Of a stretch of 49,549 nt of DNA, positions 2,054 through 38,329 are shown in pieces (the stretch's first letter is position 1; every line of letters starts with the position of its first letter). The notes beneath the pieces are model-generated. The model was not told the DNA's origin. It ran no database searches and saw only the letters and a list, made by a program, of their open reading frames with translations. The position numbers and the translations under genes were made by a program. The stretch is from positions 1-49,549 of IMG/VR virus record IMGVR_UViG_3300047509_000025, one strand, 5' to 3'. Origin of the DNA: a virus. Lineage: Duplodnaviria; Caudoviricetes.

Positions 2054-3579
2054 GCGATGAAATGACCGCAGAGCAGTTGAAGGTAATTCTTTCCGACCCA
2101 ATGAAAAGGATCAGCTCGCTCTATAAAATCCTCATCAAGGGCGAAGAAGGCGACGACAACCTGGTGCTGCAGTTCAAGCCAAACCGGGCCCAGCGCCGCT
2201 TCATCGCAAGATTGCACCATAGAAATATTATCTTGAAGGCCCGGCAATTGGGCTTCACGACTCTGATCGCCATTGTCTGGCTGGACCACGCCCTGTTCAA
2301 CGCCAACGTCCGCTGCGGCATCATCGCCCAGGACCGCGAGGCGGCCGAGGCCATCTTCCGCGACAAGGTGAAGTTCGCCTACGAGAACCTGCCGCCTGCG
2401 CTACGTCAAGCGATGCCGCTCAAGCGCGACAGCGCCACCGAGCTGCTGTTCGGCCACAACAACAGCGCCATCCGCGTGGCCACGTCCATGCGATCGGGCA
2501 CGATCCACCGCCTGCACGTGTCCGAGTTCGGAAAAATCTGCGCCAAGTTCCCCGACAAGGCCAAGGAAGTGGTGACCGGCTCGATCCCGGCCGTGCCGCT
2601 GTCGGGCATCCTGGTCATCGAGAGTACCGCCGAGGGCAGGGAAGGCGAGTTCTTCGACATGACCGAGCGCGCCATCGCGCTCAAGCAGGGCAACAAGATC
2701 CTGACGAACCGCGACTACCGCTTCCACTTCTTCCCGTGGTTCGAGGCCCCCGAGTACCGCATGGCGCCGGACACGGTCATCATCACGGACAGGGACAACG
2801 AGTATTTCGACAGCATCGAGGCGTCCGAGGATGTGACGATCGAACCAGAGCAGCGCGCCTGGTACGTGGCCACCCGCAACGCCGACTTCCCGAACAAGCC
2901 CGAACGGATGTGGCAGGAGTACCCCAGCTCGCCGGCCGAAGCGTTCCAGAAGTCGACCGAGGGCACCTACTACGTCAACGAACTGGCGCTGGCCCGCAAG
3001 CAGGGCCGCATCACCGTCGTGCCGTGGGAGCAGTCGATCCCGGTGAACACCTTCTGGGACATCGGGCTCAACGACGAGATGGCCATCTGGTTCCACCAGC
3101 GCATCGGCGCCCAGAACCGCTTCATCCGGTACTACGAGAACAGCGGCGAGACGTTCAGCCATTACGTCCACTACATGCAGTCGCTCGGCTACATCTGGGG
3201 CAAGCACTACCTGCCGCACGACGGCGACACCAAGCGCCTGGGCACGGTCCAGAATTGGACGCCGAAGCAGATGCTGGAAGACCTGAAGCTGCGCAACATC
3301 GAGATCGTCGAGCGCATCGACCGCGTGCAAACCGGCATCCAGATGGTGCGCGACGTGTTCGGTTCGTGCTGGTTCGACGAGCGCGATTGCAGCCAGGGAG
3401 TCAAGCACCTGGAGAACTACCGCAAGGAATGGGACACGCGGCTGGCAACATGGAAGGACGAGCCGCGGCACGACAAGGCATCGAACGGGGCGGACGCGCT
3501 GCGCGGCTTCGCCCAAGGCTACGAAGCCAGCACAGGAGGCGCTTGGAAGCGCAAAAAATCAAGCTGGCGCACGGCATAG
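2050..3579 (+). CDS. terL: Terminase large subunit
   Basis: Walker A-like ILKARQLGFTT, Walker B LHVSE, coupling motif IESTA, nuclease WDIG..D, PHD and PRHD..SNGADA. Confidence 0.95.
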   Translation: MSDEMTAEQLKVILSDPMKRISSLYKILIKGEEGDDNLVLQFKPNRAQRRFIARLHHRNIILKARQLGFTTLIAIVWLDHALFNANVRCGIIAQDREAAEAIFRDKVKFAYENLPPALRQAMPLKRDSATELLFGHNNSAIRVATSMRSGTIHRLHVSEFGKICAKFPDKAKEVVTGSIPAVPLSGILVIESTAEGREGEFFDMTERAIALKQGNKILTNRDYRFHFFPWFEAPEYRMAPDTVIITDRDNEYFDSIEASEDVTIEPEQRAWYVATRNADFPNKPERMWQEYPSSPAEAFQKSTEGTYYVNELALARKQGRITVVPWEQSIPVNTFWDIGLNDEMAIWFHQRIGAQNRFIRYYENSGETFSHYVHYMQSLGYIWGKHYLPHDGDTKRLGTVQNWTPKQMLEDLKLRNIEIVERIDRVQTGIQMVRDVFGSCWFDERDCSQGVKHLENYRKEWDTRLATWKDEPRHDKASNGADALRGFAQGYEASTGGAWKRKKSSWRTA

Positions 3580-19552: not shown

Positions 19553-20290
19553 ATGCAATCGACCATCGAAGCGACCATCGATCGCCACGCGCGCATCGCC
19601 CTGCAGGTGTCGGGCGGGCGCGACTCGCTGGCCTGCCTGTACCTGCTGCGCCCGTTCTGGAACCGGCTTACCGTCTACTGGTGCAATACCGGCGACGCCT
19701 ACCCCGAGACGGTCGAGATCATGCAGCATGTGGCAGCGCTGGTGCCGCACTTCGTCGAGATCGACGGGCGCCAGCCTGACGTCGTCGCGGGGTTCGGCCT
19801 GCCGTCGGACATCGTGCCGGCCAGCCACACGCCGATCGGCATCATGGGCGGCGACAGTTTCGGGCCACTGATCCAGGACCGCTATTCGTGCTGCTCGCGC
19901 GTGTTCATGCTGCCGCTGCACGAGCGCATGGTGGCCGACGGCATCACGCTGGTGATCCGCGGCCAGAAGGATGCCGACAAGCTCAAGTCGCCGATCCGGT
20001 CGGGCGCCGTCGATCTCGGCATCGAATACCTGTTCCCGATCGAGGACTGGTCGACCAGCCAGGTGATGGACTACCTGGTGGCGGAAGGCGCGCCGGTCCC
20101 GCGCTTTTACGACATGCTCGACGGCACGCCCGACTGCATGACCTGCTCGGCCTATTGGGAGCACGGCGCGGCCAAGTACCTGAAACGCTACCACCCGGTC
20201 CAGTTCGTCGAAGTGCAGCGCCGGCTCGATGTCATCAACGAGGCGGTCGGCAAGTCGATCGCCCATTTCAACAAAGAGGTGAGCGCATGA
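19553..20290 (+). CDS. PAPS/APS reductase-family protein
   Basis: PP-loop SGGRDS, NTG.AYPET, CC, RGQK, FPIEDWS, CxxC (CMTC). Confidence 0.85.
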   Translation: MQSTIEATIDRHARIALQVSGGRDSLACLYLLRPFWNRLTVYWCNTGDAYPETVEIMQHVAALVPHFVEIDGRQPDVVAGFGLPSDIVPASHTPIGIMGGDSFGPLIQDRYSCCSRVFMLPLHERMVADGITLVIRGQKDADKLKSPIRSGAVDLGIEYLFPIEDWSTSQVMDYLVAEGAPVPRFYDMLDGTPDCMTCSAYWEHGAAKYLKRYHPVQFVEVQRRLDVINEAVGKSIAHFNKEVSA

Positions 20291-21860: not shown

Positions 21861-24800
21861 GTGACCAATCCCAATTCCTTCCTGCAATCGCCATTCGATG
21901 CAATCGCCAAGCAGGATGAGGATGACGGCACGCTGCCAGGCCAGCAGGCGGTCAAGGCCGCGCCCAAGCTGGACATGCCCAAGGCGGCGCCGGCAGCCGA
22001 TGCACCCGACCAGCCCGAGCCGGCGGCCACCCGGCGCGCCGCCAAGACCACCAGCTACCTGCCACCCGACGACCTGGTGCCGCTGTTCGAGTCCGCCGCG
22101 CAGAAGTACGACGTGCCGGCCAACGTCATCATGGCGCTGGCGCACCAGGAGTCGCGCTACAACAGCAAGGCCATCGGCGAGGAAACCCAGTGGGGCCGCG
22201 CCAAGGGCATGCTGCAGTACCTGGACGACACCGCCAAGGGCCTGGGCATCAACCAGTTCGACGCCGCCCAGTCGATCGATGGCGCAGCCAAGCAGATCCG
22301 CCAGCGGCTCGACCAGGGTGCTTCCATGATCGATGCGGTCAAGGAGCACTTCGCCGGCCCTGACCGCAAGAAGTGGGGCGCCAAGACCGAGGCCTACGGG
22401 CGCGAGGTCATGGAAAAGGTCGGCAAGATCGGCGACCTGATGATGGGCAGCGCGCATGCTGGCGAGCAATCTGCCGCTGCCGCCACCGACATCCCGAAAG
22501 ACTGGGTCAAGCTGACGCCCGAGCAGGCCGCCGAGTACGAGGCCAAGTCCGCCAGCAGCACGGTGCCGAATCCACTCGCGCCGGATGCGAAGCCCGAGAC
22601 CAGCTTCCTCGACGAATACGTACTGAACCCGCTCAAGCGCGGTGCCCAGAGCATGAAGCAGGGCTTCCAGGCCAGCGGCGCCATGTACGACGCGCGCCAG
22701 CTCGCCGCAATCGGCAAGATCGACAAGGGCGAGAAGGTACCCGACCAGGACGACGCGCTGGGCTACCAGTACATGAACCCGGCCCAGCGCGCCGAGATCA
22801 AGAAGACCATGGGTGAGGCGTTCACGGTCGCGGTGAAGGACACCACCGAGACCGGCAAGAAGATCGCCGCCATCCCGCAGGACCCGATTGTCGCCGCGGC
22901 ATCGAACGCCAAAAGCTTCGATGAGTGGTGGAAATACTTCAAGCAGGCGCCGATCAAGTTCATCGCCCAGACCAGCATGGAAAGCCTGCCGAACATGGTG
23001 CCGGGCCTGGTGCTGGGAGCTGGCACGGGTCTCGCCGCGCAGGCCACCATGAAGGCCGGCGGCGTGGTCGCTGGCGCGGCCGGCATGGGCGCCGGATCGT
23101 ATGCGGTCGATTACCCGTCGTCGGTGATGTCTGCATTGCAGGACATGGGCATCGACACCAACAACCCGGATGCGCTGGCGAAAGCGTTCTCCGATCCGAA
23201 AGTGATGAAGGACGTGCAGCAGAAGGCGCACGCGCACGCTTCCGTGGTCGGCGCGCTCGACGCGGTATCGGGCGGCCGGGCCGGCGCCACCATCGTCGGC
23301 GGCAAGACCATCGCCAAGCAGGCGGCGAACCTGGGCGCCAAGACCGTCGAGCAGGGCGTGCTCGGTGCTGCCGGCGAAGCGGGCGGCCAGGTAGCGCAGG
23401 GCAAGAAGGAGCTCGAATGGGGCGCCATCATGGGCGAGTTCGCAGGCGAGATGGCCGGCGCTCCGGTCGAGATCGCGGGCGCCGCGAAACTGAAGGCACA
23501 GGAGGCGCTGGCCGCGCGCGGTGCTGATCCGGCCGCTGCACCGGCAGCCGAACCTGCTGCAACCGCCGCCCCGGCACCGATGGCCGCGCCGTCCGCGCCA
23601 GCGTCCACCCCGTCGCAGGAGGCCGGCCCGCTGTCGCGCTCGGCCGAGAACGCTGCCGAACAGCACGCCGGCCAGCCGCAGCGTGTTGTTGTCGAGACGC
23701 CACAAGGCGCTGGCGCCGGCACGCTGTCCGGCTACCAGGAGGATGCCGACGGCAATTTCGTGGCCCAGATCCAAGGCGATGACGGCCAGGTCCACCAAGT
23801 CACCAGCGCCGACGGCGTCAAGATCACCCCGGAAGCGCCCGCCGACAGCGGTCCGCTGACCGCATCCCTGTCCGCCGCTGCCGACGCGCATGAGGCCAGT
23901 CCGGCGCCGGTGCCCGAGCGCCCCGCTGCGGCGCCGGCAGAGCCCGACTACAGCACCATGCCGATCGAGGAATTGCGCGGGCGCATGAAGTACATCGCCG
24001 AGCAGGCCAAGGCGTCCGGCGGCTGGAACAAGCGCTTCATCGACGAGCGAAAGAAGGTCGAGCGCGAGATCAACGCCAAGACCGCAGGCGCGCAGGCGGA
24101 CTCGAAGCTGGCCGAGGAGCCGCTGTCGGCCGGCCCGTTCGACGACATGAAGGCGGCCAACAAGATGGCGCTGCGCTCGGCTGAAAGCACCGGCCAGCCG
24201 CATGAGGTCGTCGAGGTCAAAGGCAAGTTCAAGGTCCAGCCGATCAAGGAGACGAGCGATGCAGGAGTACCAGTCAATGTGCGTGAGCCTGGCGATGGAC
24301 GAGGAGGAAGCGATCGAGATGCTGCTGTCGCTGGGACTGCTGTCGGAGACGGACCTGTTCCTGCTCGAGACGCTGGGGGACGACCAGGAAATGCCGGAAA
24401 GCCTGCTCGAAAGGCTCAACAGCACGATACAACTGGTGATGCTGGCGCAGGCAAACCCGCCGACGCCAAGCCTGCATTAGCCGAGGCCGCGCAGCCGGAA
24501 TGGGAAAAGAACCCGTACACGCCGTACAAGTTCGCCGACCGCGAGCGCGCCGATGCGTTCATGGTCAAGAAGCAGGTCGACCCGGCCAAGTTCGAAGTGG
24601 TGCAGACCGGCAAGGTGCGCTGGGAGGTTAAACCAAAGGCGGATGGGACGGTCGCCGAGAAGTCGAATCTTGACGCAGCGCGCGAGAAGCACGCCAAGCA
24701 GGATGAGGCGGTGCGCGTGGCGGCCGAGAACATCGCACGGCGCAAGGCTGAGAAAGAAGCGGCGGCAAAGCCGATAGAGCGTCACGATGTCGAGATCATC

Positions 24801-27800
24801 AAAGAAACTGGATCCAGTAGCGCCGACATCAACAAGACCATGGCCGGCTTGCCGCCCGTGGCGGATGGACACGTTCGCCTGTACCGCGCCGAGTCGCCCA
24901 CGACCAAGTTTGACGATGTGTTCAATGCCGACGGGCTAGGCGACTTCAAGACTGATCAACCAGGTGAGCGCTATACTCCGGACCTGAAGTACGCAGACTA
25001 CTATCGCCAGCCCTACGGTAGGGACGCGAAGATCCATTATATCGACGTGCCGCAGGCTGTGGCCGACAAAGTCAAACTGAACGATGCGGAATACGTCGTC
25101 GACACTAAGATCGTTCCCGCCGCCAAAAAAGTGCCAGATGTGGCACCTGTCGAGGCTGCCGTCGACACCCAGGTCAAGCCGAAGAAGAAAGCCCCGGCCC
25201 GTGGCAAGGCCGCCGACGCCGCGCGCACGCAGGCGCTGGCCGACCACTTCACGCCGGGCAACGTGGTCAAGGGCTATGGTGGCCACGACCGCGTGCTGGC
25301 CTACACGCCACCTGACGGCGACGGCAACTTCAGCGTCAAGGTCCAGCATGTCGTCCGCAAGGGCGATGCGTGGGTCGTCGCACTAGGCACCGACGGGCGC
25401 GAGCGCACCCATTCGACCATGCCGAACGAGCGCGAACTGAAGGCTGGCCCGGTCGAGAGCGCACCAAAGGCCACCGGCAACCCGATGATCGACAACCCGG
25501 CAAGCTGGGTCATCCGCGAAAAGAAGACCGGCAAAGTCGTCATGGAGACGTTCGACCGCAAGAAGGTCGATGCCTTGAACACGAAAAAGTACGAGGCCGT
25601 GTCGATCGCCGAGCACTTGGGAAGCCTCAATCAGAAACCCGCAGCCGAGCAGGATAACACGCCAGTACCAGAGGCGACCGTCAAGTATTCTGTGGCAGGC
25701 GATGATCAGCAGCCGGACGTGAAGCAGTTCCGCGAGGCGATGGTTGAAAAGTACCCCGGCATTCGGCTCGAGCTGTTCGACCGCGGCAATGGCGACCTGA
25801 ACCTGTCCTTGGTCATAGTGCCAAAGGACGAGCGCAGTACTGGCACTGGCACAGCGTTGATGAACGACCTGACTGCCTACGCCGATGCGACCGGCAAGCG
25901 GATCGTCTTGACCCCATCGGGTGACTTCGGCGGCAATAAGGCCCGCCTGCGCAAATTCTACAAGCGGTTCGGCTTTGTCGAGAATAAAGGCCGGGCGAAA
26001 GACTTTTCGATTATGGACGCGATGTACCGCGATCCAGAGGGCGGCAAGCCGGTGCTGTATTCGGTTTCCGACGACAGCGCCGCCACCGCGATCGCCGACC
26101 TGATGGCCGCAAAGGAGGGCGAAGCAGTCATCAACCGGCCCGACGTCGGCGACATCACGGTGGCCTATGGCGATGCGAAAGCCGGGCTGGCCCACATCGC
26201 GCGCCGCCGTGGCGCCGGCTTCATGGCCCGCTTGCCAGCGCTGCTGCGCGACGGCAGCGTCTACGAAAAGCCGGGCCAGACCGGGCGCATCTTCATCGGC
26301 ACCGACAAGGACGAAGCCGTGATCCGGCTGGACCGCGACGGCGAGACCAAGAACTGGCTGCTGTCGGCCTACGAGAAGTACCCCGACCTGGCCCCGGCCA
26401 GCGCCAAGCAGTCCAGCGTCGGCCAGCAGCAGGCCGCCGACTTCAAGGTCATGAGCCCGGACGAAGTGAAGGCGGCGATCACCACCGGCACCATCGGCCC
26501 GGTGATTGCGCGCCTGATCGAGCACGGCGCCATCGTGATCCACAAGTCGGTCAAGACGCTGCCGAAGGAGGCCGGCAAGGTCGCCAAGGGCGTGCAGGCG
26601 GTCACCATGCCGGACGGCACGATCCACTTCGTGGCCGGTTCGCTGACCAACAAGAACGCGCGCGCGGTGCTGCTGCACGAAGCGTTCCACAAGGGCGCCG
26701 AGAGCCTGATCGGCTCGAAGGAGTGGGCCAACCTGATGGGCCGCGCCGGCTCGCTGTACCGCCAGTCCGAGCAGTCCTCCGGCCGTGCGCGCGAGTTCTT
26801 CGACCGGGCCAGGGCGCGCGTGGCCAGCGCCAAGGCCAAGGGCGCCGTCACAACCAGGATGGAAGTGGAGGAGTTCGCCGCCTACGCGATCGAGGAATAC
26901 GAAACGGCCCGCGACGGCATGCCGGCAGCCGTGCGCAAGTGGGTCGACGACCTGATCGGGCTGGTCAAGGCGTGGATGGTCAAGCGCTACGGCAAGCAGG
27001 TCGGACAGGTCACGCCAGCGCAGTTGTCGGCGTTCGCCAAGCTGGCGATCATGGACGTGGCCGCCGGCAAGCGCGGGGAGATGTTCGGGCCGATCGGGGA
27101 ACTGTTCAGCATGGCCGGCAGCATTACCGACACGCCAGCCTTCCAGCGCTGGTTCGGCATGAGCAAGGTGGTCGATGATAATGGTGCGCCGCTGGTGGTC
27201 TACCACGGCACCGATGCCGATATTACAGAATTCCGCACCAAGGACAACGATGGTCAAGGCAAGGAATTCCCGCTGGATGGCGCTTTCTTCGCTGAGCACC
27301 CTGATGCTGCCAACGAGTTCGGTAGTCACAAGAAGGGCACCAACGTCATCCATGCCTACCTGTCGCTGCGCAACCCGCTGGAGCGCGAGATGCGCGATGA
27401 CGGAGAGGGAATTGATGCTGACTGGCGCAACCCTATGGCAGAGCAGGATGTCATCACGGAGGCGCGCACCGCCGGGAATGATGGCGTTATCTTTCGCAGC
27501 AGCTTGACCGGCGAACGGTATTTCGTGGTGTTCGCGCCCGAGCAGATCAAGAGCGCCACCGGCAACGCCGGCACGTTCTCGCCTGACAATCCTGACATTC
27601 GCTATTCGGTCGTCGCCGATGTCGATGCGCCGGCCAATGAAGATGCCACTGCCGAACAGCAAGGATTGACTCCGCCAGAGCAGGGCCTGCTGCGCCGCGT
27701 GCAGGCGGCCATCCAGGACAACATGAACCGGGTCAAGCAGGTGCAGGAGCGCATCCTGGAAGCCACCGGCCGCGCCACGCTGGGCAAGTCCGACTACTAC

Positions 27801-30377
27801 GGCGCCGAGACCAACCGGCCGGGGCGCATCGCCGCGCGGCTTGAGGATGGCGAGGACTTCCTGTTCAAGCCGCTGATGCAGCGCCTAGCGAAGGCCGGGC
27901 ACACGCAGGCGCAACTGTCCGAACTGCTGCACGCGATGCACGCGCACGAGCGCAACGAGCGGGTGGCGGCGATCAACCCGGAGATGCCGGACGGCGGCTC
28001 GGGCATGACGGACGCGCAGGCCAACGAGATCCTGGCGCGCTACGAAGGCGACGGCTTCAAATCGCTGCACCGGCTGGCCGACGCCGCGCGCGAGATCGCC
28101 AAGGCGACCCTGGACCTGAAGCTGGCCTATGGGCTGATCAAGTCGGCCGACCACGAGATGCTGTCGACCATGTACGAGCACTATGTGCCGCTCAAGGGCG
28201 ACGGCGAGTACGGGCCGAAGATCAAGCGAGCGATGGGCCACGAGGAGCGCGACGAGCACATCCTGGACAACATCGCGCGCGACTACGACCAGGCGGTGGT
28301 GGTGGGCGAGAAGAATCTGGCGCGCCAGTCGCTGCTGCAAATGGTGCTGCAGTTCAAGGACGATGCGCTGTGGACCGCGCGCGTGCCGCCGAAGGGCCGC
28401 TACGTGGCCGGCCAGGTGCTCAACGTGATGAAGGACGGCCAGCAGGTCGCCAGCTTCACCAGCAAGCCACAGGTCAGCGCGTTCCTCGAAGGGCTGGGTT
28501 CGGCCGCGGTCGGCCACACGGTGCAGACCAGCGCCGGGGAGCAGGTCACCGAATTCACCAAGCCGCTGCAGGACAACGAGGTGATGGTCTACGTCAAGGG
28601 CGACCCGGTGCGCATCCAGATCCACGACGAGACGCTGGCGCGCCAGCTCCGACCGCTCAACCAGGGCCAGATGAATCCGGTCCTCGAATTCATGCGCACG
28701 GTGAACCAGTACCTGTCGAAGATTTACACCGGCTACAACCCGGCGTTCATCCTGCGCAACACCGCGCGCGACGCGATGACCGGCACCATCAACATGCTGG
28801 GCAACCAGGGCGCCGGCATCGCCGCGAAGGCATGGATGCAGTACCCGTCGGCATTGAAGACCATGGGCCAGTGGGCGGCCACCAAGAAGGTGCCCGACGG
28901 CCAGACCGGCAACTACCTGACCGAGTACCGTATGCACGGCGGCAAGGTCGGCGCTTCGTGGATGAGCGACCTGGAGCAGAAGGGCAAGACGCTCGAAGTC
29001 CTGTTCGACGATGCCTACGGCGCCGCCGGCTACGCGCGCGACGGCAAGGTCGGCAAGGCGGCGCGGGTGGCCGGACGCAAGATCGTCGGCGGCTTGGCCC
29101 ACGTGATCGAGATCGGCAATCAGGCCACCGAGAACGCGCTGCGGCTGGCGCTGTTCATCGCGCTGCGCAAGGATGGCATGTCGCCGGCACTGGCGGCGCA
29201 GGCGGCCAAGGGCGTCACGGTGGACTTCGACCGCAAGGGCGCGCAGACCGGCGCGCTGGGCGCGATCTACCTGTTCTTCAACCCGGCGGTGCAGGGCACG
29301 GCCAACGCGGTCAAGACGCTGGCCAAGGGTCGGCACCGGCAGCAGGCCTGGGCGGCGCTGGGCGGGCTGGCGCTGCTCGGGGTCTACGCCGCGTCGAAGG
29401 GGATGGGCGACGACAAGGACCGCTGGCTGGGAGAAGGCTGGGAGACGCGCACCAAGAACTTCATGATGAACGTGGGCTGGCACCAGTTGCGCGTGCCGAT
29501 CTCGCAGGAGTTCGCGCCGGTCTACGCGCTGGGCGTGGCGCTGGCGGAAGGGCTGCACGGCGAGACGAAGGCGAAGACAGCGGCGCGCGTGGTGTCCTCG
29601 TTCATTGACGCCTACTTCCCGCTGCAAGGCGCGTTCAAGGCCGATAGCGACAACCACCTGCTCGACGCCGCGCTGGCGACCGTGCCGACCGTGTTCAAGC
29701 CGCTGTCCGAGAGCGCGGCCAACCGCAACAGTTTCGGTTCCCAGATCGTGCCCGAGAACGAACTGACCAAGGACCGGCCCGATAACCTCAAGATGTTCCG
29801 CGGCACCAAGAACTCGATGTACGACAAGGCGGCGCAGGGCATGGCGGCGGCCGGCGTGATGGCGGGCTTCGCCGGCCAGTACGAGAATGACATCACCAAG
29901 GTCAGCCCGGAGACGCTGAAGTCGTTGTGGCGCACCTACACGGGCGGGCTGGGGCAGTTCGTCACCGACTCGGTCGGGCTCGCCTCGATGACGGTGGCCG
30001 ATCCGTCCCAGGTGGAAGTGGGCGACGTGCCGATCGTCAAGGATTTCGTGCACGACCAGGACGTCAAGCCGATCCGCGGCAGGTACTACGACTTGGCGCG
30101 CGAGGCGCACGCCGCGATCACCGAGTTCGAGCAGGCCAAGAAGGCGGGCGACGGCGACGCGCTGGACGCGATCTTCAAGGACGACGCCAAGGCCCGGTTG
30201 GTCGGACTGGGGCGGATGGTGCGCAGCACCAACAAGGCCGCCGCCGCCGTGCGCGACGAAGCGGTCGACGTCAACGCCGACAAGCAGATGGCCCCGGCCG
30301 CCAAGCGCGCCGCGCTCAAGAAGATCGAGCAGACCGAGGAGGAGCTGTACCGGGCGGCGATCGAGGCGTTCAAGTAA
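21861..30377 (+). CDS. Large polyvalent ejection protein: SLT transglycosylase, ART-like, GNAT, BECR-like, zincin, ART-PolyVal-like and LPD38-like domains
   Basis: QESRYN..A...RAKGMLQ (SLT); VRLYRAE..YT..LKYADYY; VPKDERSTGTGTALM..L.KFYKRFGF (GNAT); GDITVAYG...GLAHI; LLHEAFH; AFQRWFG.SKVVD.NG.PLVVYHGT..QIKSATGN.GTF; VDFDRKG..YLFFNPAVQG. Confidence 0.88.
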   Translation: MTNPNSFLQSPFDAIAKQDEDDGTLPGQQAVKAAPKLDMPKAAPAADAPDQPEPAATRRAAKTTSYLPPDDLVPLFESAAQKYDVPANVIMALAHQESRYNSKAIGEETQWGRAKGMLQYLDDTAKGLGINQFDAAQSIDGAAKQIRQRLDQGASMIDAVKEHFAGPDRKKWGAKTEAYGREVMEKVGKIGDLMMGSAHAGEQSAAAATDIPKDWVKLTPEQAAEYEAKSASSTVPNPLAPDAKPETSFLDEYVLNPLKRGAQSMKQGFQASGAMYDARQLAAIGKIDKGEKVPDQDDALGYQYMNPAQRAEIKKTMGEAFTVAVKDTTETGKKIAAIPQDPIVAAASNAKSFDEWWKYFKQAPIKFIAQTSMESLPNMVPGLVLGAGTGLAAQATMKAGGVVAGAAGMGAGSYAVDYPSSVMSALQDMGIDTNNPDALAKAFSDPKVMKDVQQKAHAHASVVGALDAVSGGRAGATIVGGKTIAKQAANLGAKTVEQGVLGAAGEAGGQVAQGKKELEWGAIMGEFAGEMAGAPVEIAGAAKLKAQEALAARGADPAAAPAAEPAATAAPAPMAAPSAPASTPSQEAGPLSRSAENAAEQHAGQPQRVVVETPQGAGAGTLSGYQEDADGNFVAQIQGDDGQVHQVTSADGVKITPEAPADSGPLTASLSAAADAHEASPAPVPERPAAAPAEPDYSTMPIEELRGRMKYIAEQAKASGGWNKRFIDERKKVEREINAKTAGAQADSKLAEEPLSAGPFDDMKAANKMALRSAESTGQPHEVVEVKGKFKVQPIKETSDAGVPVNVREPGDGRGGSDRDAAVAGTAVGDGPVPARDAGGRPGNAGKPARKAQQHDTTGDAGAGKPADAKPALAEAAQPEWEKNPYTPYKFADRERADAFMVKKQVDPAKFEVVQTGKVRWEVKPKADGTVAEKSNLDAAREKHAKQDEAVRVAAENIARRKAEKEAAAKPIERHDVEIIKETGSSSADINKTMAGLPPVADGHVRLYRAESPTTKFDDVFNADGLGDFKTDQPGERYTPDLKYADYYRQPYGRDAKIHYIDVPQAVADKVKLNDAEYVVDTKIVPAAKKVPDVAPVEAAVDTQVKPKKKAPARGKAADAARTQALADHFTPGNVVKGYGGHDRVLAYTPPDGDGNFSVKVQHVVRKGDAWVVALGTDGRERTHSTMPNERELKAGPVESAPKATGNPMIDNPASWVIREKKTGKVVMETFDRKKVDALNTKKYEAVSIAEHLGSLNQKPAAEQDNTPVPEATVKYSVAGDDQQPDVKQFREAMVEKYPGIRLELFDRGNGDLNLSLVIVPKDERSTGTGTALMNDLTAYADATGKRIVLTPSGDFGGNKARLRKFYKRFGFVENKGRAKDFSIMDAMYRDPEGGKPVLYSVSDDSAATAIADLMAAKEGEAVINRPDVGDITVAYGDAKAGLAHIARRRGAGFMARLPALLRDGSVYEKPGQTGRIFIGTDKDEAVIRLDRDGETKNWLLSAYEKYPDLAPASAKQSSVGQQQAADFKVMSPDEVKAAITTGTIGPVIARLIEHGAIVIHKSVKTLPKEAGKVAKGVQAVTMPDGTIHFVAGSLTNKNARAVLLHEAFHKGAESLIGSKEWANLMGRAGSLYRQSEQSSGRAREFFDRARARVASAKAKGAVTTRMEVEEFAAYAIEEYETARDGMPAAVRKWVDDLIGLVKAWMVKRYGKQVGQVTPAQLSAFAKLAIMDVAAGKRGEMFGPIGELFSMAGSITDTPAFQRWFGMSKVVDDNGAPLVVYHGTDADITEFRTKDNDGQGKEFPLDGAFFAEHPDAANEFGSHKKGTNVIHAYLSLRNPLEREMRDDGEGIDADWRNPMAEQDVITEARTAGNDGVIFRSSLTGERYFVVFAPEQIKSATGNAGTFSPDNPDIRYSVVADVDAPANEDATAEQQGLTPPEQGLLRRVQAAIQDNMNRVKQVQERILEATGRATLGKSDYYGAETNRPGRIAARLEDGEDFLFKPLMQRLAKAGHTQAQLSELLHAMHAHERNERVAAINPEMPDGGSGMTDAQANEILARYEGDGFKSLHRLADAAREIAKATLDLKLAYGLIKSADHEMLSTMYEHYVPLKGDGEYGPKIKRAMGHEERDEHILDNIARDYDQAVVVGEKNLARQSLLQMVLQFKDDALWTARVPPKGRYVAGQVLNVMKDGQQVASFTSKPQVSAFLEGLGSAAVGHTVQTSAGEQVTEFTKPLQDNEVMVYVKGDPVRIQIHDETLARQLRPLNQGQMNPVLEFMRTVNQYLSKIYTGYNPAFILRNTARDAMTGTINMLGNQGAGIAAKAWMQYPSALKTMGQWAATKKVPDGQTGNYLTEYRMHGGKVGASWMSDLEQKGKTLEVLFDDAYGAAGYARDGKVGKAARVAGRKIVGGLAHVIEIGNQATENALRLALFIALRKDGMSPALAAQAAKGVTVDFDRKGAQTGALGAIYLFFNPAVQGTANAVKTLAKGRHRQQAWAALGGLALLGVYAASKGMGDDKDRWLGEGWETRTKNFMMNVGWHQLRVPISQEFAPVYALGVALAEGLHGETKAKTAARVVSSFIDAYFPLQGAFKADSDNHLLDAALATVPTVFKPLSESAANRNSFGSQIVPENELTKDRPDNLKMFRGTKNSMYDKAAQGMAAAGVMAGFAGQYENDITKVSPETLKSLWRTYTGGLGQFVTDSVGLASMTVADPSQVEVGDVPIVKDFVHDQDVKPIRGRYYDLAREAHAAITEFEQAKKAGDGDALDAIFKDDAKARLVGLGRMVRSTNKAAAAVRDEAVDVNADKQMAPAAKRAALKKIEQTEEELYRAAIEAFK
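24259..24480 (+). CDS. Nested (overprinted) acidic 73-aa protein inside the giant gene
   Basis: AAGGAG 7 nt before ATG; genome-typical G/C-ending codons in this frame while the giant-gene frame turns atypical and low-complexity. Confidence 0.7.
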   Translation: MQEYQSMCVSLAMDEEEAIEMLLSLGLLSETDLFLLETLGDDQEMPESLLERLNSTIQLVMLAQANPPTPSLH

Positions 30378-32519: not shown

Positions 32520-33872
32520 ATGAACCCGCAAAACAGAACATACACGCTCAATGGCGGCAAGGTGTATGCCGGCCGGTTGACGCCGGGCGGAAGTGGCGGC
32601 GGCTCGCCCGGCGCTTCCGGCGTTGGAGTGCTGGTGACTGCGCCAGGCACCGGTGGCGACATCCTGTCGATCCGCCCCGCTCATGGCTACCTGAAAAGCG
32701 TGCATGCGAACGACCTTGCTGCGCTCAACCCATGCCCAGGCGATGCGTGCTGGTATTCGGAAGCGAGCAAGCAGAATGGCCCTTGGGCGAACTGGTGCGG
32801 CGCAGTCTACGCTGCCGATTATTCGCAGTACGGCGCGATGGTGTACTGGGGCGGCGGCCATGGAGGCTACGACGGAACCGAGTTCTATATCTTCGACTTC
32901 ACCACGCAGAAATGGTCGCGCCTGAATAATCCGGTGTCCTACGATTTCCTGCCAGATACCGGCGCCGACTGGTGCGATGCGGTCATTGAAGGCTATCCGG
33001 TCGCCCCGGCGTCGCATACATATGGCGGCCCGGTGTATCAGGCGTCTGCTTACGGGGGCGGAAACAAAGGTTCGTGGGTGCTGCCATACAACGTGTACGG
33101 CGGCGGGGCTGGCTCGGGCAATGGCACGGTAGGCTATCGGCCGCACGCGGTTGATCTGGAGACTGGCGCATGGCGGCGCCTGACCGATACCACGCGTCAG
33201 GCGTACTACCCGTCAGCCGTGCAGGGATCATGTTTCGTAGACAAACACGGCATGCTGTGGGGCATTCAGGGGTCTAGTTCCGACACCCACGTCAAGATCG
33301 ATCTTGCCGCGCCAGGCGCCGTGAAAACCCTGACCAACTATGACGGACACTTTTACACGCCCGGCTACTACTGGTCGTTCGGCTACGTGCCGGCGCGGGA
33401 TTTCCTGGTCATGGCGTACCTGAATTACTCGGGCACGACAGTCAGCCTGGCCATCTATGACCTGGCGATTACAAGCGGCGCTATGGATGTCAACCCACCT
33501 GTAACTGGTGCCCCGGATTTCCTGCCAGCGCCTGGCAGCGGTACCCTAAACGCGTCCGGGTTCGGTTTCGACTACTGCCCGGACAACAACAAGTTCTACG
33601 CCTACGAGGGCTTCGGTTCGCAAATCGTCCACGTCCTGACCCCGCCCGCTTCCGGGAGCTGGAAGACCGGCACCTGGGTCTGGACCACCGAGACGATGCT
33701 CGGCGAAACGGCCGTGGGCCTGATCGGACAGGGCACGCAGGCATTCACCAAATGGAAGTACATCCCAGCGCTGCAATGCTTCGCGTGGTCGCAAGGCACC
33801 CAAATTCGCAATTCACCCGACGGCACGCCACGCGCTGGCGCCCTTCAACTCTATCGCCCTGTAGGAACCTGA
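32520..33872 (+). CDS. Beta-propeller-like (kelch-like) protein
   Basis: WCGAVYA...WGGGHGGYDGTEFYIFDF...WSR, SHTY; Gly/Tyr/Trp-rich blades. Confidence 0.6.
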   Translation: MNPQNRTYTLNGGKVYAGRLTPGGSGGGSPGASGVGVLVTAPGTGGDILSIRPAHGYLKSVHANDLAALNPCPGDACWYSEASKQNGPWANWCGAVYAADYSQYGAMVYWGGGHGGYDGTEFYIFDFTTQKWSRLNNPVSYDFLPDTGADWCDAVIEGYPVAPASHTYGGPVYQASAYGGGNKGSWVLPYNVYGGGAGSGNGTVGYRPHAVDLETGAWRRLTDTTRQAYYPSAVQGSCFVDKHGMLWGIQGSSSDTHVKIDLAAPGAVKTLTNYDGHFYTPGYYWSFGYVPARDFLVMAYLNYSGTTVSLAIYDLAITSGAMDVNPPVTGAPDFLPAPGSGTLNASGFGFDYCPDNNKFYAYEGFGSQIVHVLTPPASGSWKTGTWVWTTETMLGETAVGLIGQGTQAFTKWKYIPALQCFAWSQGTQIRNSPDGTPRAGALQLYRPVGT

Positions 33873-33873
33873 C

Positions 33874-35418
33874 ATGCCAATTTCCCCACCAGTCATCGAC
33901 GCCAGTTCGACGGGCAATGCGCAGTATGCTGATAACGCCACCTGGAACCATACGGTCGGCGCGTCGGCCAACTATCTCAGTGTCGGCATCAAGGAATCCG
34001 GCTCTGCCGACAAACTGGACTCAGGCACCGTCACCTTCAACGGTGTCGCGCTGACCAGGGTGCGGCCCGCCGCAGGCACTGGCGGCCAGGTGTACATCTA
34101 TGAATTGGAGAACCCTGCTGTCGGAACGCACGCTATCGTCGTGGGGTTCGAAACTGGGGCCTGCCAGGCGGTTTGCTGGGCGTCGTCGTGGGTCGGAGTA
34201 GATCTGACTGTTGCGCGCAGCCATACCAGCAGTGGCAACATCAACTCCGGGCCTGACGCGCTGGCCATTACGGGGTCCTCCGCAGGAACGGTCACGCTGG
34301 ACTATATCGGCAGTAATGACAATGCCGCGTTCACCAACCATGTCTCGCAAACATTGCTTGGACAAGGGACTAACGGCACGGAAGCAAATGCCTATCTGGC
34401 CGCGTCCTACAAGGTCAATGCTTCGACGATGAACTGGACCTGGGCGGCATACAGGGAATGGGATCATAGCGCCATTACATTGACCGGTCTGGCCGTGGCC
34501 GACACCACCGCGCCGATCTTGTCCAGCCCGACCGCATCGGCGACCAGCACCACCACTGCGACCGCCACCGTCAGCACCGACGAAGCGAACGGCACGCTGT
34601 ACACGCTGTTCTCGACCAATGCGACCGAAACGGCCAGCACGATCCGCAGCAGCGGCCAGTCGCAGGCGGTCACGGCAACCGGGGTGCAGACGGTCAACAA
34701 GACCGGGCTGACCGCCAGTACCACCTACTACGCACACCACGTCCACGACGATGCGGTCGGCACGCCAAACGTGTCGAACGTGGTCCACTCTGCTTCGTTC
34801 GCTACCCCGGCAGCCGGCGACACCACGCCACCCACGCTGTCGTCCCCGACCGCGCTGAAGACCGGCTCGACCACGGCCACCGGCACCGTCACCACCAACG
34901 ACGGGACCGGCGTGCTGCGCTATTACGTGTCGGCCAACGCCAGCGAGTCGCAGGCGACTCTTCTGGCGTCCGGCACCACGCAAGCTGTCACTGCGACCGG
35001 TGTGCAGAACGTGTCGAAAACTGGCCTGACGCCAAGCTCTACCGTGCGATTCCACTACATGCACACCGACCCGTCGGGCAACCAAAGCACGGTGTGGAGT
35101 TCGGCCACGATCACGCTCGATGCGGCCCCTTCGGGAGGATCGTTCCTGACCAACCAGCTGGTCAACCGCGCGATCGATCCGACTTCCGGCCAGACCGGCG
35201 GCGTGCTGCAGGCAAGTCAGGCGGGCTGGGAGGTGTGCGTGCACGACAACGCGAGCGGCGCGCTGATCGGGTCCAAGGTCACCGGGCTGTCCACTAACTC
35301 GCTCGGCAAGCTTGCGATCAGCAACCACGCTGGCACTACGGCGGGCACCGTGTACCGCCTGGACTACTACAACACCGTGACCGGCATGTTTGGCGTCCAG
35401 CGCGCAACGGCGGCCTGA
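33874..35418 (+). CDS. Thr/Ser-rich beta protein with two tandem Fn3-like repeats
   Basis: DTT.P.LSSPTA...VTATGVQ.V.KTGLT repeated at 34501 and 34819. Confidence 0.7.
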   Translation: MPISPPVIDASSTGNAQYADNATWNHTVGASANYLSVGIKESGSADKLDSGTVTFNGVALTRVRPAAGTGGQVYIYELENPAVGTHAIVVGFETGACQAVCWASSWVGVDLTVARSHTSSGNINSGPDALAITGSSAGTVTLDYIGSNDNAAFTNHVSQTLLGQGTNGTEANAYLAASYKVNASTMNWTWAAYREWDHSAITLTGLAVADTTAPILSSPTASATSTTTATATVSTDEANGTLYTLFSTNATETASTIRSSGQSQAVTATGVQTVNKTGLTASTTYYAHHVHDDAVGTPNVSNVVHSASFATPAAGDTTPPTLSSPTALKTGSTTATGTVTTNDGTGVLRYYVSANASESQATLLASGTTQAVTATGVQNVSKTGLTPSSTVRFHYMHTDPSGNQSTVWSSATITLDAAPSGGSFLTNQLVNRAIDPTSGQTGGVLQASQAGWEVCVHDNASGALIGSKVTGLSTNSLGKLAISNHAGTTAGTVYRLDYYNTVTGMFGVQRATAA

Positions 35419-35419
35419 C

Positions 35420-38329
35420 ATGACGACCTTCCTGAAGCTGACCAGCCCGAACAGCGCCACCGCACCGTTTGCGTTCGGTGTCGGCTTTGCGAAGGGGGAT
35501 ATTCCTTCATCCTTCGCCACGTCCGACCTGGCCAACTATCAGGTCAACGTGAAGCGGCGCTGGAACGACGGTAGCGTCAAGACGGCGACCGTGTCCGGCT
35601 TCGCGGCCCTCACCGCCAACGTGCAGAAGACGGTCACGTTCGCGCCCGGCACGCCGCCAACCGGCACCAGCCTGACCGCCGCCGACATTGCTACGGCGGT
35701 AGCCGCGGCAGGGACGACGGCGGTGCAGTGCGGCTCCTACGGCACCGTCAATCTGTCGTCGCTGACGGCAACCCCGTTCCAGACATGGGACAGCGGCCCG
35801 CAGATGATCAACTGCATCTACCGCGCCGGGATCACCGGCACGCACCTGCATGCGTGGTTCGACGTACGCCTGTTCGCGGGCGGCAAAATGGACATCATCG
35901 CCTGGGTCGAAAACGGCTACCTTGATGATGGCGCTGGCGCGGTGGCAACAAATGCGGATGTCACCTACAGCCTGGCCATCACGCTCGGCGGGACGGTGGT
36001 ACAGAACAACGGCGGCGTGGTGCTCACGCACTGCCCGAATACCTGCGTGTTCGGCTTCGGCTGGGTCGGCGGCGATCCGCAAGTGACGCCGCAGCATGAT
36101 GTCGCCTACATGCGCGGCGCGGCCAAGCTGACGCAGAACTACGCGCGCTCGAACCCGAACAATACGACGCTCAACGCACTGCTGCAGACCTACACGCCGA
36201 ACGTCGAGATGTCGATTTACTGGGACATGACTGGCGCTGGAGCCAATCCATCAATCGCGCTGTTGCCGCATTGGAATGCGCTGTACATGGGGACTGCAGA
36301 TGCGCGCGCCTACCGCGCGACCATCGTCAATTCACTCAGTATGGGCTCGTATGGAATTAGCTGGCGCGACGCGACCACCAAGAAGGTGTTGAAGCCATCG
36401 AATTTCGCCTCATGGTCGGTCGATGGTCCGGGCGGCTCAGCCACCTCCGGGGTCAATCTGTCGAACGGCTCCAAGTGGGAAATCAACCACGCGCCGGGCG
36501 AGAGCTACCTTGCCTACCTGCTGACCGGGCGCTACGCCCACTATGAACTGCTGCTGAAACACGCGGCGACCTGCTATATCACGCGGTCGACCGGAGCGAC
36601 CGGCGTGGTGACGATGGGCAGCGGCACAAGCCGCAAGCTGGTGCATCAGGTGCGCGGCACGGCATGGACGATCCGCACCCTGTCACTGTTGGCTGCCATC
36701 GCACCGGATTCGGAAATCGCCGCGGGCGGCGTGGCTGCCGAATACCGCACTCTGCTGGTCAACAACGTCGCGTACTGGAAGTCGGTCACGCAGACGGCCG
36801 GCATCAACCAGCTCGGCTACCTGTACGAATACGGCGCCAGCGGCAGCCTTGACGCCTACGGGCCGGGATGGTCGCCAAGCTGGCAGCACGACTGGTGGGC
36901 AGCGTCGATGGGCCTCGGCTCCGATCTGGAGCCGCTGGCCGACATGACGGAATATAACTTCGTGCGCGACTGGCTGTACAAGGGCGTGGTCGGCAGGGTC
37001 GGGGACAGCAGCGGCTTCTACTTCGGCGAGGCATCGACCTACGCCGTCAAGATCAGCGACGCGAGCAGCCTCGACCCGACCACATGGCTCGATTCGTGGG
37101 CCACAGTCTATCAGCGCACCTTCGCGCACCTGTCTGGCGGCGCGGACTCGATCGCCAAGGATGACACCTTGATTAACTCGGGCAATCCGGCTGCGTTTGA
37201 GCCGGTGCCCAACACAACCGGCGCGGGCGGCCCTGCTGACGCGGAATTCGGGCGCTGGGGGTACCTGCTGCCCGCCCTGTGCTACGCCGCCGAACATGGC
37301 GCACCGGGCGCTGCCGCCTCGTATGCGCGCGTCACAGGCGCGACCAATTACTCGACGCTCAACACCGCAGGCTTCGACCAGGCACCCCAGTGGGATGCCA
37401 CCCCACGTTCAATTCCAGGAGAAGCAATGACGGCAATTTCCGGGCCAACCAGCCGCGTCGATACCGGCAACGAGATCCCCGGCTGCACCATCGTCGGGTC
37501 CACGCCCGGTTACGGCCTGCTGGCGCAGGACATTACCAGCGGCGGCACGGACGGCAGCTCGCCGCTGTTTGCATCGCTGGAATTCCCGGCCGACCAGGAT
37601 TATGAAGTCAGCGCCACCTTGGTGACGGCGCCGACCGGGACCTTCACGTTGGAACTTGGCGATGACGGATCGCTGTATTACAGCGGCGGGGCCAACGTCC
37701 TGATGCTGCAATTCTGGAAAGGCGTGCAGCAGGTCGGCGCGCCGAAGCTGGTCACATTCTCGGCGGACGGCACGCCAAGCATTGTTACTGGCGTCACCAT
37801 TTCGCCGACCACGGCTACAGGGTCGGTGACGTTCACCGGCACCGTAGAGGGAAGCGGATCGCCGTCCCAGGCGCTGACCTACGCCAAGATGAGCGGGCCG
37901 GGCACCCTGGTCGGTGCTGCCTACACCGAGCCGGCGGCGACCAATTCAATTCAGTATGCCGTGGTGCGCGCCACCAGCGTGCAGGACCCTGACTACTGGG
38001 CCGACGCGGTCATCACCATCGCCGCCTCCATCACGCCTGTGACCGCCACCAGCGTCACGGTCACGTTCGAGAACCGCAGCGGCGACCTGCAGTCGAACCT
38101 GGCGGGCATGAAGTGGGCGTTCTTCGACCAGCCCCGACCCGATCTACTGAGCGCACCGGTCGCCAAGGGCTCGGCCGAAAGCACGAACAGCGCGGGCGTG
38201 CTGGTGCTCGACATCACCGGCACCGCGCTGCTGTCCGGCGCCACCGGCTACCTGGTGTTTTCCAACACGGACGGCACGGCCTCGCAGGCGGGCCAGATCG
38301 CCTTCGCCGGCCCCGTCGTGGTGGTCTGA
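35420..38329 (+). CDS. Large accessory protein: polysaccharide-lyase-like N-terminal part plus Ig-like C-terminal part
   Basis: PFAFG..F.KG...Q.NV.RRWNDGSVK.A; IALLPHW, HAP..SYLAYLLTG, QVRG.AW..R helical-barrel pattern; VTGVTISP Ig-like domain. Confidence 0.6.
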   Translation: MTTFLKLTSPNSATAPFAFGVGFAKGDIPSSFATSDLANYQVNVKRRWNDGSVKTATVSGFAALTANVQKTVTFAPGTPPTGTSLTAADIATAVAAAGTTAVQCGSYGTVNLSSLTATPFQTWDSGPQMINCIYRAGITGTHLHAWFDVRLFAGGKMDIIAWVENGYLDDGAGAVATNADVTYSLAITLGGTVVQNNGGVVLTHCPNTCVFGFGWVGGDPQVTPQHDVAYMRGAAKLTQNYARSNPNNTTLNALLQTYTPNVEMSIYWDMTGAGANPSIALLPHWNALYMGTADARAYRATIVNSLSMGSYGISWRDATTKKVLKPSNFASWSVDGPGGSATSGVNLSNGSKWEINHAPGESYLAYLLTGRYAHYELLLKHAATCYITRSTGATGVVTMGSGTSRKLVHQVRGTAWTIRTLSLLAAIAPDSEIAAGGVAAEYRTLLVNNVAYWKSVTQTAGINQLGYLYEYGASGSLDAYGPGWSPSWQHDWWAASMGLGSDLEPLADMTEYNFVRDWLYKGVVGRVGDSSGFYFGEASTYAVKISDASSLDPTTWLDSWATVYQRTFAHLSGGADSIAKDDTLINSGNPAAFEPVPNTTGAGGPADAEFGRWGYLLPALCYAAEHGAPGAAASYARVTGATNYSTLNTAGFDQAPQWDATPRSIPGEAMTAISGPTSRVDTGNEIPGCTIVGSTPGYGLLAQDITSGGTDGSSPLFASLEFPADQDYEVSATLVTAPTGTFTLELGDDGSLYYSGGANVLMLQFWKGVQQVGAPKLVTFSADGTPSIVTGVTISPTTATGSVTFTGTVEGSGSPSQALTYAKMSGPGTLVGAAYTEPAATNSIQYAVVRATSVQDPDYWADAVITIAASITPVTATSVTVTFENRSGDLQSNLAGMKWAFFDQPRPDLLSAPVAKGSAESTNSAGVLVLDITGTALLSGATGYLVFSNTDGTASQAGQIAFAGPVVVV

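Follow-up and report, generated by a model that had tools for sequence, protein, structure and literature searches.

The giant DarB-like proteins of Bcep22-like (Lessievirus) and Gervaisevirus phages are the closest described counterparts of the locus considered here. The homologue in phage JC1, gp69, is virion-associated, with 51 unique peptides, and the available part of the same source reports no homologues of the P1 proteins DdrA, DdrB, Hdf and Ulx in JC1 (PMC9144972). The passages of PMC5512222 that touch on overlapping, nested or embedded reading frames describe no nested gene in the giant, and no account of nested genes within DarB-like or polyvalent genes was found in a literature search in which subscription journals were thinly covered. 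A second line of work, cited here from partial texts, concerns the protease Lon: tails that end in histidine act as autonomous Lon degrons, with KD values of 3 uM for -RVTLH and 30 uM for -DLSLH (PMC11986505), LarA controls Lon via a tail ending in histidine (PMC10665427), and T4 PinA and T7 gp4.5 are named as Lon-targeting (PMC10286901).

The present locus lies in a complete virus record of 49.5 kb, analysed over its whole length of 49,549 nucleotides (the window), which carries portal (P22-like), capsid, tail, holin and endolysin genes. Within its giant DarB-like gene, a frame of 73 codons in the +1 register is, judging from its sequence and that of its relatives, very likely a real accessory gene.

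The giant gene and the frame nested in it

The giant belongs to the DarB-like proteins of Bcep22-like and Gervaisevirus phages by PHROG 10089, by its LPD38 and SLT domains and by tblastn matches of 58-64% across the C-terminal part, its nearest cultured kin being Bcep22-like Burkholderia phages and Ralstonia Gervaiseviruses. It is a large, multidomain protein with LPD-, SLT- and ART-type domains, encoded in a virion module (Table 1). No Pfam match to a methylase or an SNF2-type helicase was found in the window's giant; most relatives have both. The helical anchor domain was seen in 19 of the 19 giants compared, 14 of which had been retrieved via the anchor or the entire giant, and the small domain with the VVQTGK motif often, not always, adjoins the slot that holds the nested gene in related giants.

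Several other features of the window were observed. GC3 of the giant frame goes down to ~0.65-0.75 at positions 24650-25100, 25550-25950 and 27100-27400, without a frame switch, which suggests that these low-GC3 blocks are modules acquired recently. Directly before the ART domain, at 27154-27182, there is a weak promoter-like site. The virion module includes a PAPS-reductase-like gene (19553-20290), as it does in Bcep22-like and Gervaisevirus phages, and the lysis genes are followed at 32520-38329 by three large plus-strand ORFs (450, 514 and 979 aa), for which searches of Pfam and PHROG gave no PHROG match and a weak kelch match in the first only.

Table 1. Positions of the giant gene, its domains and the nested gene in the window, with examples of a second nested gene in related giants
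Feature	Position	Strand	Remarks
Giant DarB-like polyvalent gene	21861..30377	+	2838 aa; Pfam, PHROG 10089, tblastn
SLT lytic transglycosylase domain of giant	22083..22394	+	Pfam PF01464, E 1e-9
Helical anchor domain of giant	23946..24095	+	aa 696-745, upstream of nested gene
Shine-Dalgarno-like AAGGAG	24246..24251	+	7 nt before nested ATG
Ala/Gly/Asp/Pro linker of giant	24258..24482	+	aa 800-874; shifted reading of nested gene
Nested gene, +1 frame of giant	24259..24480	+	73 aa; ATG at 24259, TAG ends at 24480
C-terminal tail NPPTPSLH of nested protein	24454..24477	+	most conserved polar feature of the family; putatively Lon-degron-like
Small domain (VVQTGK motif) of giant	24519..24641	+	downstream of slot
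GNAT-like domain of giant	25797..25982	+	PF13508, E 7e-4, below Pfam cut-off
PBECR1 nuclease-like domain of giant	26133..26378	+	PF18809, E 1e-3, below Pfam cut-off
ART-PolyVal domain of giant	27174..27578	+	PF18760, E 1e-27
LPD38 domain of giant	29418..30038	+	PF18857, E 6e-29
Second nested gene, examples	L001:9378-9701, L003:6680-7003, L006:15585-15902		many others

A sequence-only reading of the window had pointed out a Shine-Dalgarno-like (SD) motif seven nucleotides before an ATG that opens a 73-codon +1 frame, and this arrangement was confirmed with the same translation; start, stop and ribosome-binding site all fall within the larger ORF on the same strand. The SD region folds weakly (z +1.14), the other in-frame starts, at 24277 and 24319, are weaker, no promoter-like site was detected upstream of the nested gene in a sequence scan, and the encoded protein has a net charge of -13. 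A contig of run X1 matches positions 23578-26000 with no mismatches or gaps; the run may be the source of the record, and the match is hence not independent. Coverage by a second run, X2, does not extend to the nested gene.

The switch of the giant frame to A/T-ending codons over this span, also part of that reading, was found in 51 of 75 codons, against 352 of 2764 elsewhere. Over the span the nested frame has a GC3 of 0.85, and the giant frame, which here encodes a linker of Ala16, Gly15, Asp9 and Pro8, has one of 0.32. Among 24 alternative-frame ORFs of at least 25 aa in the giant, the nested ORF alone has a positive codon-fit score (+38.7; runner-up -23.1), and in sliding windows along the giant the +1 frame exceeds the giant frame in fit to coding usage solely at the nested span. 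The top codon-fit score in 300 synonymous shuffles was -21.4. ORF length and SD alone are not significant, because shuffles often give them (a +1 ATG ORF of at least 73 aa with a 5-nt SD in 30 of 300, and a nested span free of stops in 141 of 300); the codon switch is significant.

Relatives of the nested gene and the question of the passenger frame

Single-sequence searches with the 73-aa protein returned nothing from viral contigs, the protein collection, Pfam, PHROGs or the ESM Atlas, and homologues were reached via the flanking domains of the giant rather than by direct query. At the slot, +1 ORFs with an SD and a start are present in RPZH3, Alix, BcepMigl, Bcep22, JC1, Pavtok, PEp14, Stean, Parlo and many metagenomic contigs; homologues occupy the +1 frame of giants in cultured phages of Ralstonia, Burkholderia, Erwinia, Serratia and Klebsiella and in metagenomic phages. 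One of them, L030, shares 35% identity with the window protein across 68 residues (E 8e-7), a seven-sequence profile (A5) recovers the held-out L053 (7e-18), L057 (2e-14) and L049 (1e-9), and L053 found a member within the giant gene of Klebsiella phage ZX1 (E 5e-6). Searches led by the small proteins reached seven distinct contigs, all seven with the gene nested in the +1 frame of a giant ORF, and eight predicted proteins on short contigs, where gene callers had called homologues, match the family. Two weak matches in 401 bacterial genomes of one class (E 3e-4 and 6e-4), both longer unrelated frames and one containing a stop, were rejected because they rescored at E 0.01-0.08; L057 tblastn matches in 16 of 17 phage records, at E 4-9, were disregarded.

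An SD-like match of at least 4 nt precedes the start in all 27 slot ORFs tallied, start choice being SD-weighted, and members only 12-39% identical to the window protein retain their own SD, start and stop. The slot is found in the same third of related giants, near the anchor, with the SLT region on one side and the enzymatic domains on the other; its immediate neighbours vary, and in L053 the nested gene precedes the anchor domain. Acidity, which the earlier reading had treated as the key property of the protein, is not a family trait: net charge across members runs from -17 to +10, and L068, the window's nearest giant relative on the tree, has a neutral copy. The family profile does not recognise the 54-aa slot ORFs of Burkholderia phages or two others at the slot. 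Short slot ORFs (46-60 aa) with an SD and a Gln or His end were also seen (L003:4814-4978, L004:4190-4354, L027:4317-4499, L039:3528-3668) and may be degenerate members of the family or have replaced them. No nested gene is annotated within the giant in any of the 14 GenBank regions examined.

Substitutions point to selection on the nested frame. Seven disjoint pairs, including two of the 54-aa type, were compared: differences at giant codon positions 1, 2 and 3 number 125, 100 and 80 inside the nested gene and 153, 151 and 271 in its flanks (Fisher p 5e-9). Position 1 of the giant codon is the wobble position of the nested frame, and the contrast is blunted because some flanks are non-homologous. 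Of 18 pairs, 16 show higher conservation in the nested frame than in the giant frame, and the window and L068 stand at 36% in both frames. Purifying selection is modest, with frequent change at nested positions 1 and 2, and in several close pairs the nested gene diverges faster than the flanking giant domains. Codon fit, the wobble shift and the homologue family together bear out the selection that had been supposed to act on the nested frame, at modest strength. In a set of 18 full giants, a positive codon fit was obtained for 31 of 372 alternative-frame ORFs of at least 45 aa; all 31 are in the +1 frame, and an SD of at least 4 nt precedes 30 of them, against 52 of the other 341.

The nested gene had been described as overprinted on the giant and inherited inseparably from it. 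For the first of these claims, codon usage and substitutions point the other way, to the giant frame as the passenger: the typical codons sit in the nested frame, which is not the pattern of de novo overprinting. The small gene is probably the older frame here and the giant's linker its shadow, as far as sequence comparison can tell; capture of an older gene is a deduction, because no search gave a free-standing copy to demonstrate it. Inseparable inheritance is contradicted by four cultured relatives, UAM5, Itty13, Skulduggery and SopranoGao, whose entire records gave no match to the family profile, at limited sensitivity (0/5 and 0/5 records matched, and 1/5 in a control set, which missed 54-, 60- and 46-aa slot ORFs and L015, a record without the gene). 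The giant's linker is short or absent in all four, and on a tree built from one giant domain, with 16 rows, the four absences require four changes, the giants being mosaic. Two natural with/without pairs are available, RPZH3 and UAM5, and ZX1 and SopranoGao. In the latter pair the flanks are 97% and 93% identical, and 226 nt in ZX1 correspond to 55 nt in SopranoGao, an in-frame change of 57 codons; the 226 nt include the SD, the start codon and almost all of the gene.

Other +1 ORFs were observed in related giants. Most of them carry a second nested gene of ~95-135 aa, preceded by a strong SD and located ahead of the methylase/helicase region (Table 1); absent from the window, this gene has several weak Pfam TnpV matches (best E 1.8e-4, below cut-off) and is retained in RPZH3 and Alix, whose giants show no methylase/helicase match. 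Some Ralstonia phage giants hold a 184-aa +1 ORF with an SD (L035:4140-4694, L038:4143-4697, L021:5052-5606), for which the Pfam match is just HTH_20 (E 0.049) and whose motif we take to be that of an HNH homing endonuclease; if so, a ready-made gene would have been inserted with the giant frame unbroken. Basic +1 ORFs of 37-45 aa with an SD share a similar Met-Ala...Gly-Ser-Pro-x-x-Gln-Lys start at four loci (L005:5632-5769, L020:3597-3710, L032:3718-3831, L050:3203-3328) and have a codon fit of about zero. A very basic 44-51 aa +1 ORF with an SD, downstream of the slot, is common to L065:8400-8534 and L067 (reverse strand). Directly upstream of the anchor, two giants without the slot gene carry a 50-aa +1 ORF with good codon fit and no Pfam match (L046:2564-2716, L052:3564-3716). 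A third candidate nested ORF, of 74 aa with a GTG start (L010:21306-21530, L014:21312-21536), is located at aa ~3550-3575 of the PEp14 and Stean giants.

Predicted fold, terminal histidine and possible roles

AlphaFold2 predicts three helices for the window protein (H15-24, H30-40 and H47-65; mean pLDDT 79) and three for the L068 protein (pLDDT 85), each followed by a non-helical tail, the C-terminal end of the nested protein being modelled at low confidence. No convincing match in Pfam, PHROG, PDB or the Atlas emerged from scans with the family (top PHROG match 2996, E 0.0014, in one of 16 members; top PDB sequence match E 0.089), and Foldseek gave no match at E 0.001 in PDB or BFVD. The top VIA Z was 4.7 for the window model and 3.9 for the L068 model; rows for sigma region 4 and helix-turn-helix proteins (Z 3.4-4.7 for the window, weaker for L068) are within the background of small helical bundles. 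Searches with these predicted models establish neither a known nor a new fold. The first two helices look somewhat like SHOCT or MshEN half-motifs, a likeness that Pfam does not support, with the MshE/PilF rows at just Z 3.2-3.3.

The nearly invariant columns of the family are Met-1, Ala-18, Leu-62 and the final His-73. A terminal His is present in 24 of 26 members and in 10 of 10 clusters at 50% identity (endings LH 18, RH 3, VH 2, KH 1, Gln 2), and the 54-aa Burkholderia slot ORFs have Gln at the end; elsewhere it was found in none of 21 other nested genes, none of 22 window genes and 13 of 1027 background +1 stops. The window protein, ending in -SLH, has the terminal His of a Lon degron; its third-last residue, Ser, departs from the full x-L/I-L/I/V-H pattern, and it matches just the weak tested variant -DLSLH. 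By analogy with the tested tails, the balance tips slightly towards a conserved His tail that functions as a Lon degron. Such a degron may merely limit lifetime and says nothing on the protein's job.

The explanation preferred here begins with internal initiation on the giant's transcript, which would very probably yield a separate nested protein. Its product is likely an optional, short-lived three-helix protein, across whose gene the giant reads as a low-complexity linker, and the His-ended tail is predicted to engage the Lon of the host. Taken as a whole, this chain from internal initiation through short life to Lon has somewhat less than an even chance of being right. Its most speculative extension is that the nested protein, by occupying or tuning Lon during giant synthesis, would protect the linker-rich virion giant until packaging; shielding of this kind is tentative and on the unlikely side. 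A broader version would see swappable +1-frame cassettes in giant ejection-protein genes, with 'linkers' as their shadows and this one as a new family of Lon modulators whose degron-mimicking His tail shields the giant or blunts Lon-dependent host defence; in that full form it is less likely again.

The constancy of position would also suit a protein that binds to the giant's N-terminal third and escorts it or helps to package it, as P1 Dar needs extra proteins, the His tail merely clearing the helper afterwards. The gene is never found outside a giant, and its place, near the anchor, invariably falls after the SLT region and ahead of the enzymatic domains; the JC1 giant is in the virion, and the available text reports that the P1-type helpers were not found there (PMC9144972); and E. 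coli GndA, which according to the part of the preprint available relocalises the product of its host ORF, offers a precedent (bioRxiv 10.64898/2026.10.22.760973). An escort would be harder to reconcile with four cultured phages that keep the anchor without the nested gene, with a surface charge that flips between -17 and +10, with differing immediate neighbours and with the L053 gene preceding the anchor, and we rate it as unlikely.

The patchy presence (four changes on the 16-row tree) and fast divergence of the gene would be expected of an accessory protein that acts on the host and has nothing to do with the giant or with control of Lon, one for which the linker is a late-expressed, low-cost slot and the tail a means to a short life. 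Unrelated small +1 ORFs, including the TnpV-like genes and the 184-aa endonuclease-like ORF, share these giants. Were the gene indifferent to the giant, it might also be expected at other sites, yet free-standing copies did not turn up in any search, and this role appears somewhat less likely than an escort.

On the sequence-only reading, the protein would be acidic and would serve one of the effector domains (ART, PBECR1 nuclease or GNAT) as immunity protein or chaperone. In favour of this, strong acidity is seen in the window protein and in one clade, the acidic carriers L030/L061 and L065 have ART-PolyVal, and Lon often degrades unstable antitoxins (PMC10286901, available in part). However, among 15 full-length carriers ART is present in two, GNAT in four, PBECR1 in two and none of these in seven, in counts that distant domain versions could have escaped at the thresholds used; the acidic carriers L062 and L064 are without ART; and GNAT (in Skulduggery) and PBECR1 (in Itty13) occur without the nested gene. 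Because of the poor co-occurrence, the acidic carriers without ART and the charge range, immunity to these domains is very improbable; the protein might yet chaperone a different part of the giant. Least credible of all is an untranslated frame, left by compensating frameshifts or produced by linker composition, since the recurrence of length and SD in 30 of 300 shuffles and the lack of a Pfam, PHROG, PDB or Atlas family stand against an SD, start and stop retained at 12-39% identity, a substitution bias of the nested frame, confident fold predictions (pLDDT 79 and 85) and gene callers that called homologues on short contigs.

Whatever the role of the protein, between one and three conserved small genes inside the largest gene have gone unrecorded in the annotations of Bcep22, JC1, Pavtok, Parlo, ZX1 and several Ralstonia phages, and annotation-based proteomics would therefore not look for them. 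Whole genes read through would be a concrete origin for some low-complexity linkers of polyvalent proteins. The nested products are candidates for the accessory factors of Lessievirus DarB-like proteins, which the available part of PMC9144972 reports as not found, and the terminal His offers the family a sharp, cheap test.

Likeness to known systems

Nested genes are known as a kind (Rz1, GndA), and this protein family is, by its sequences, new and unannotated. The Rz/Rz1 spanins, which are annotated in these phages (PMC9144972, available in part), likewise have one gene lying wholly within another and using a start of its own. Unlike Rz/Rz1, the nested gene shows no lipoprotein or spanin features, its slot is optional and the outer frame is a mere linker. 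E. coli GndA, as described in the available part of the preprint cited above, resembles the arrangement proposed here in being an unstable small protein made by internal out-of-frame initiation (within gnd); it differs in that its outer gene encodes a structured enzyme and in being membrane-associated and heat-induced, whereas here it is the nested frame that has genome-typical codons. The TnpV-like nested gene (PF14198) has the same +1 arrangement with an SD in the same giants, but it belongs to another family and slot, is absent from the window and is never His-ended. Among Lon substrates and regulators, SulA, Smg, Y2287, Y2220 and LarA are without homology to the family, in which Ser, Thr or Arg usually takes the third-last place instead of Leu or Ile; the likeness lies in a free C-terminus made of a hydrophobic residue and His, and the family's -SLH and -TLH endings match tested degrons (PMC11986505 and PMC10665427, each available in part).
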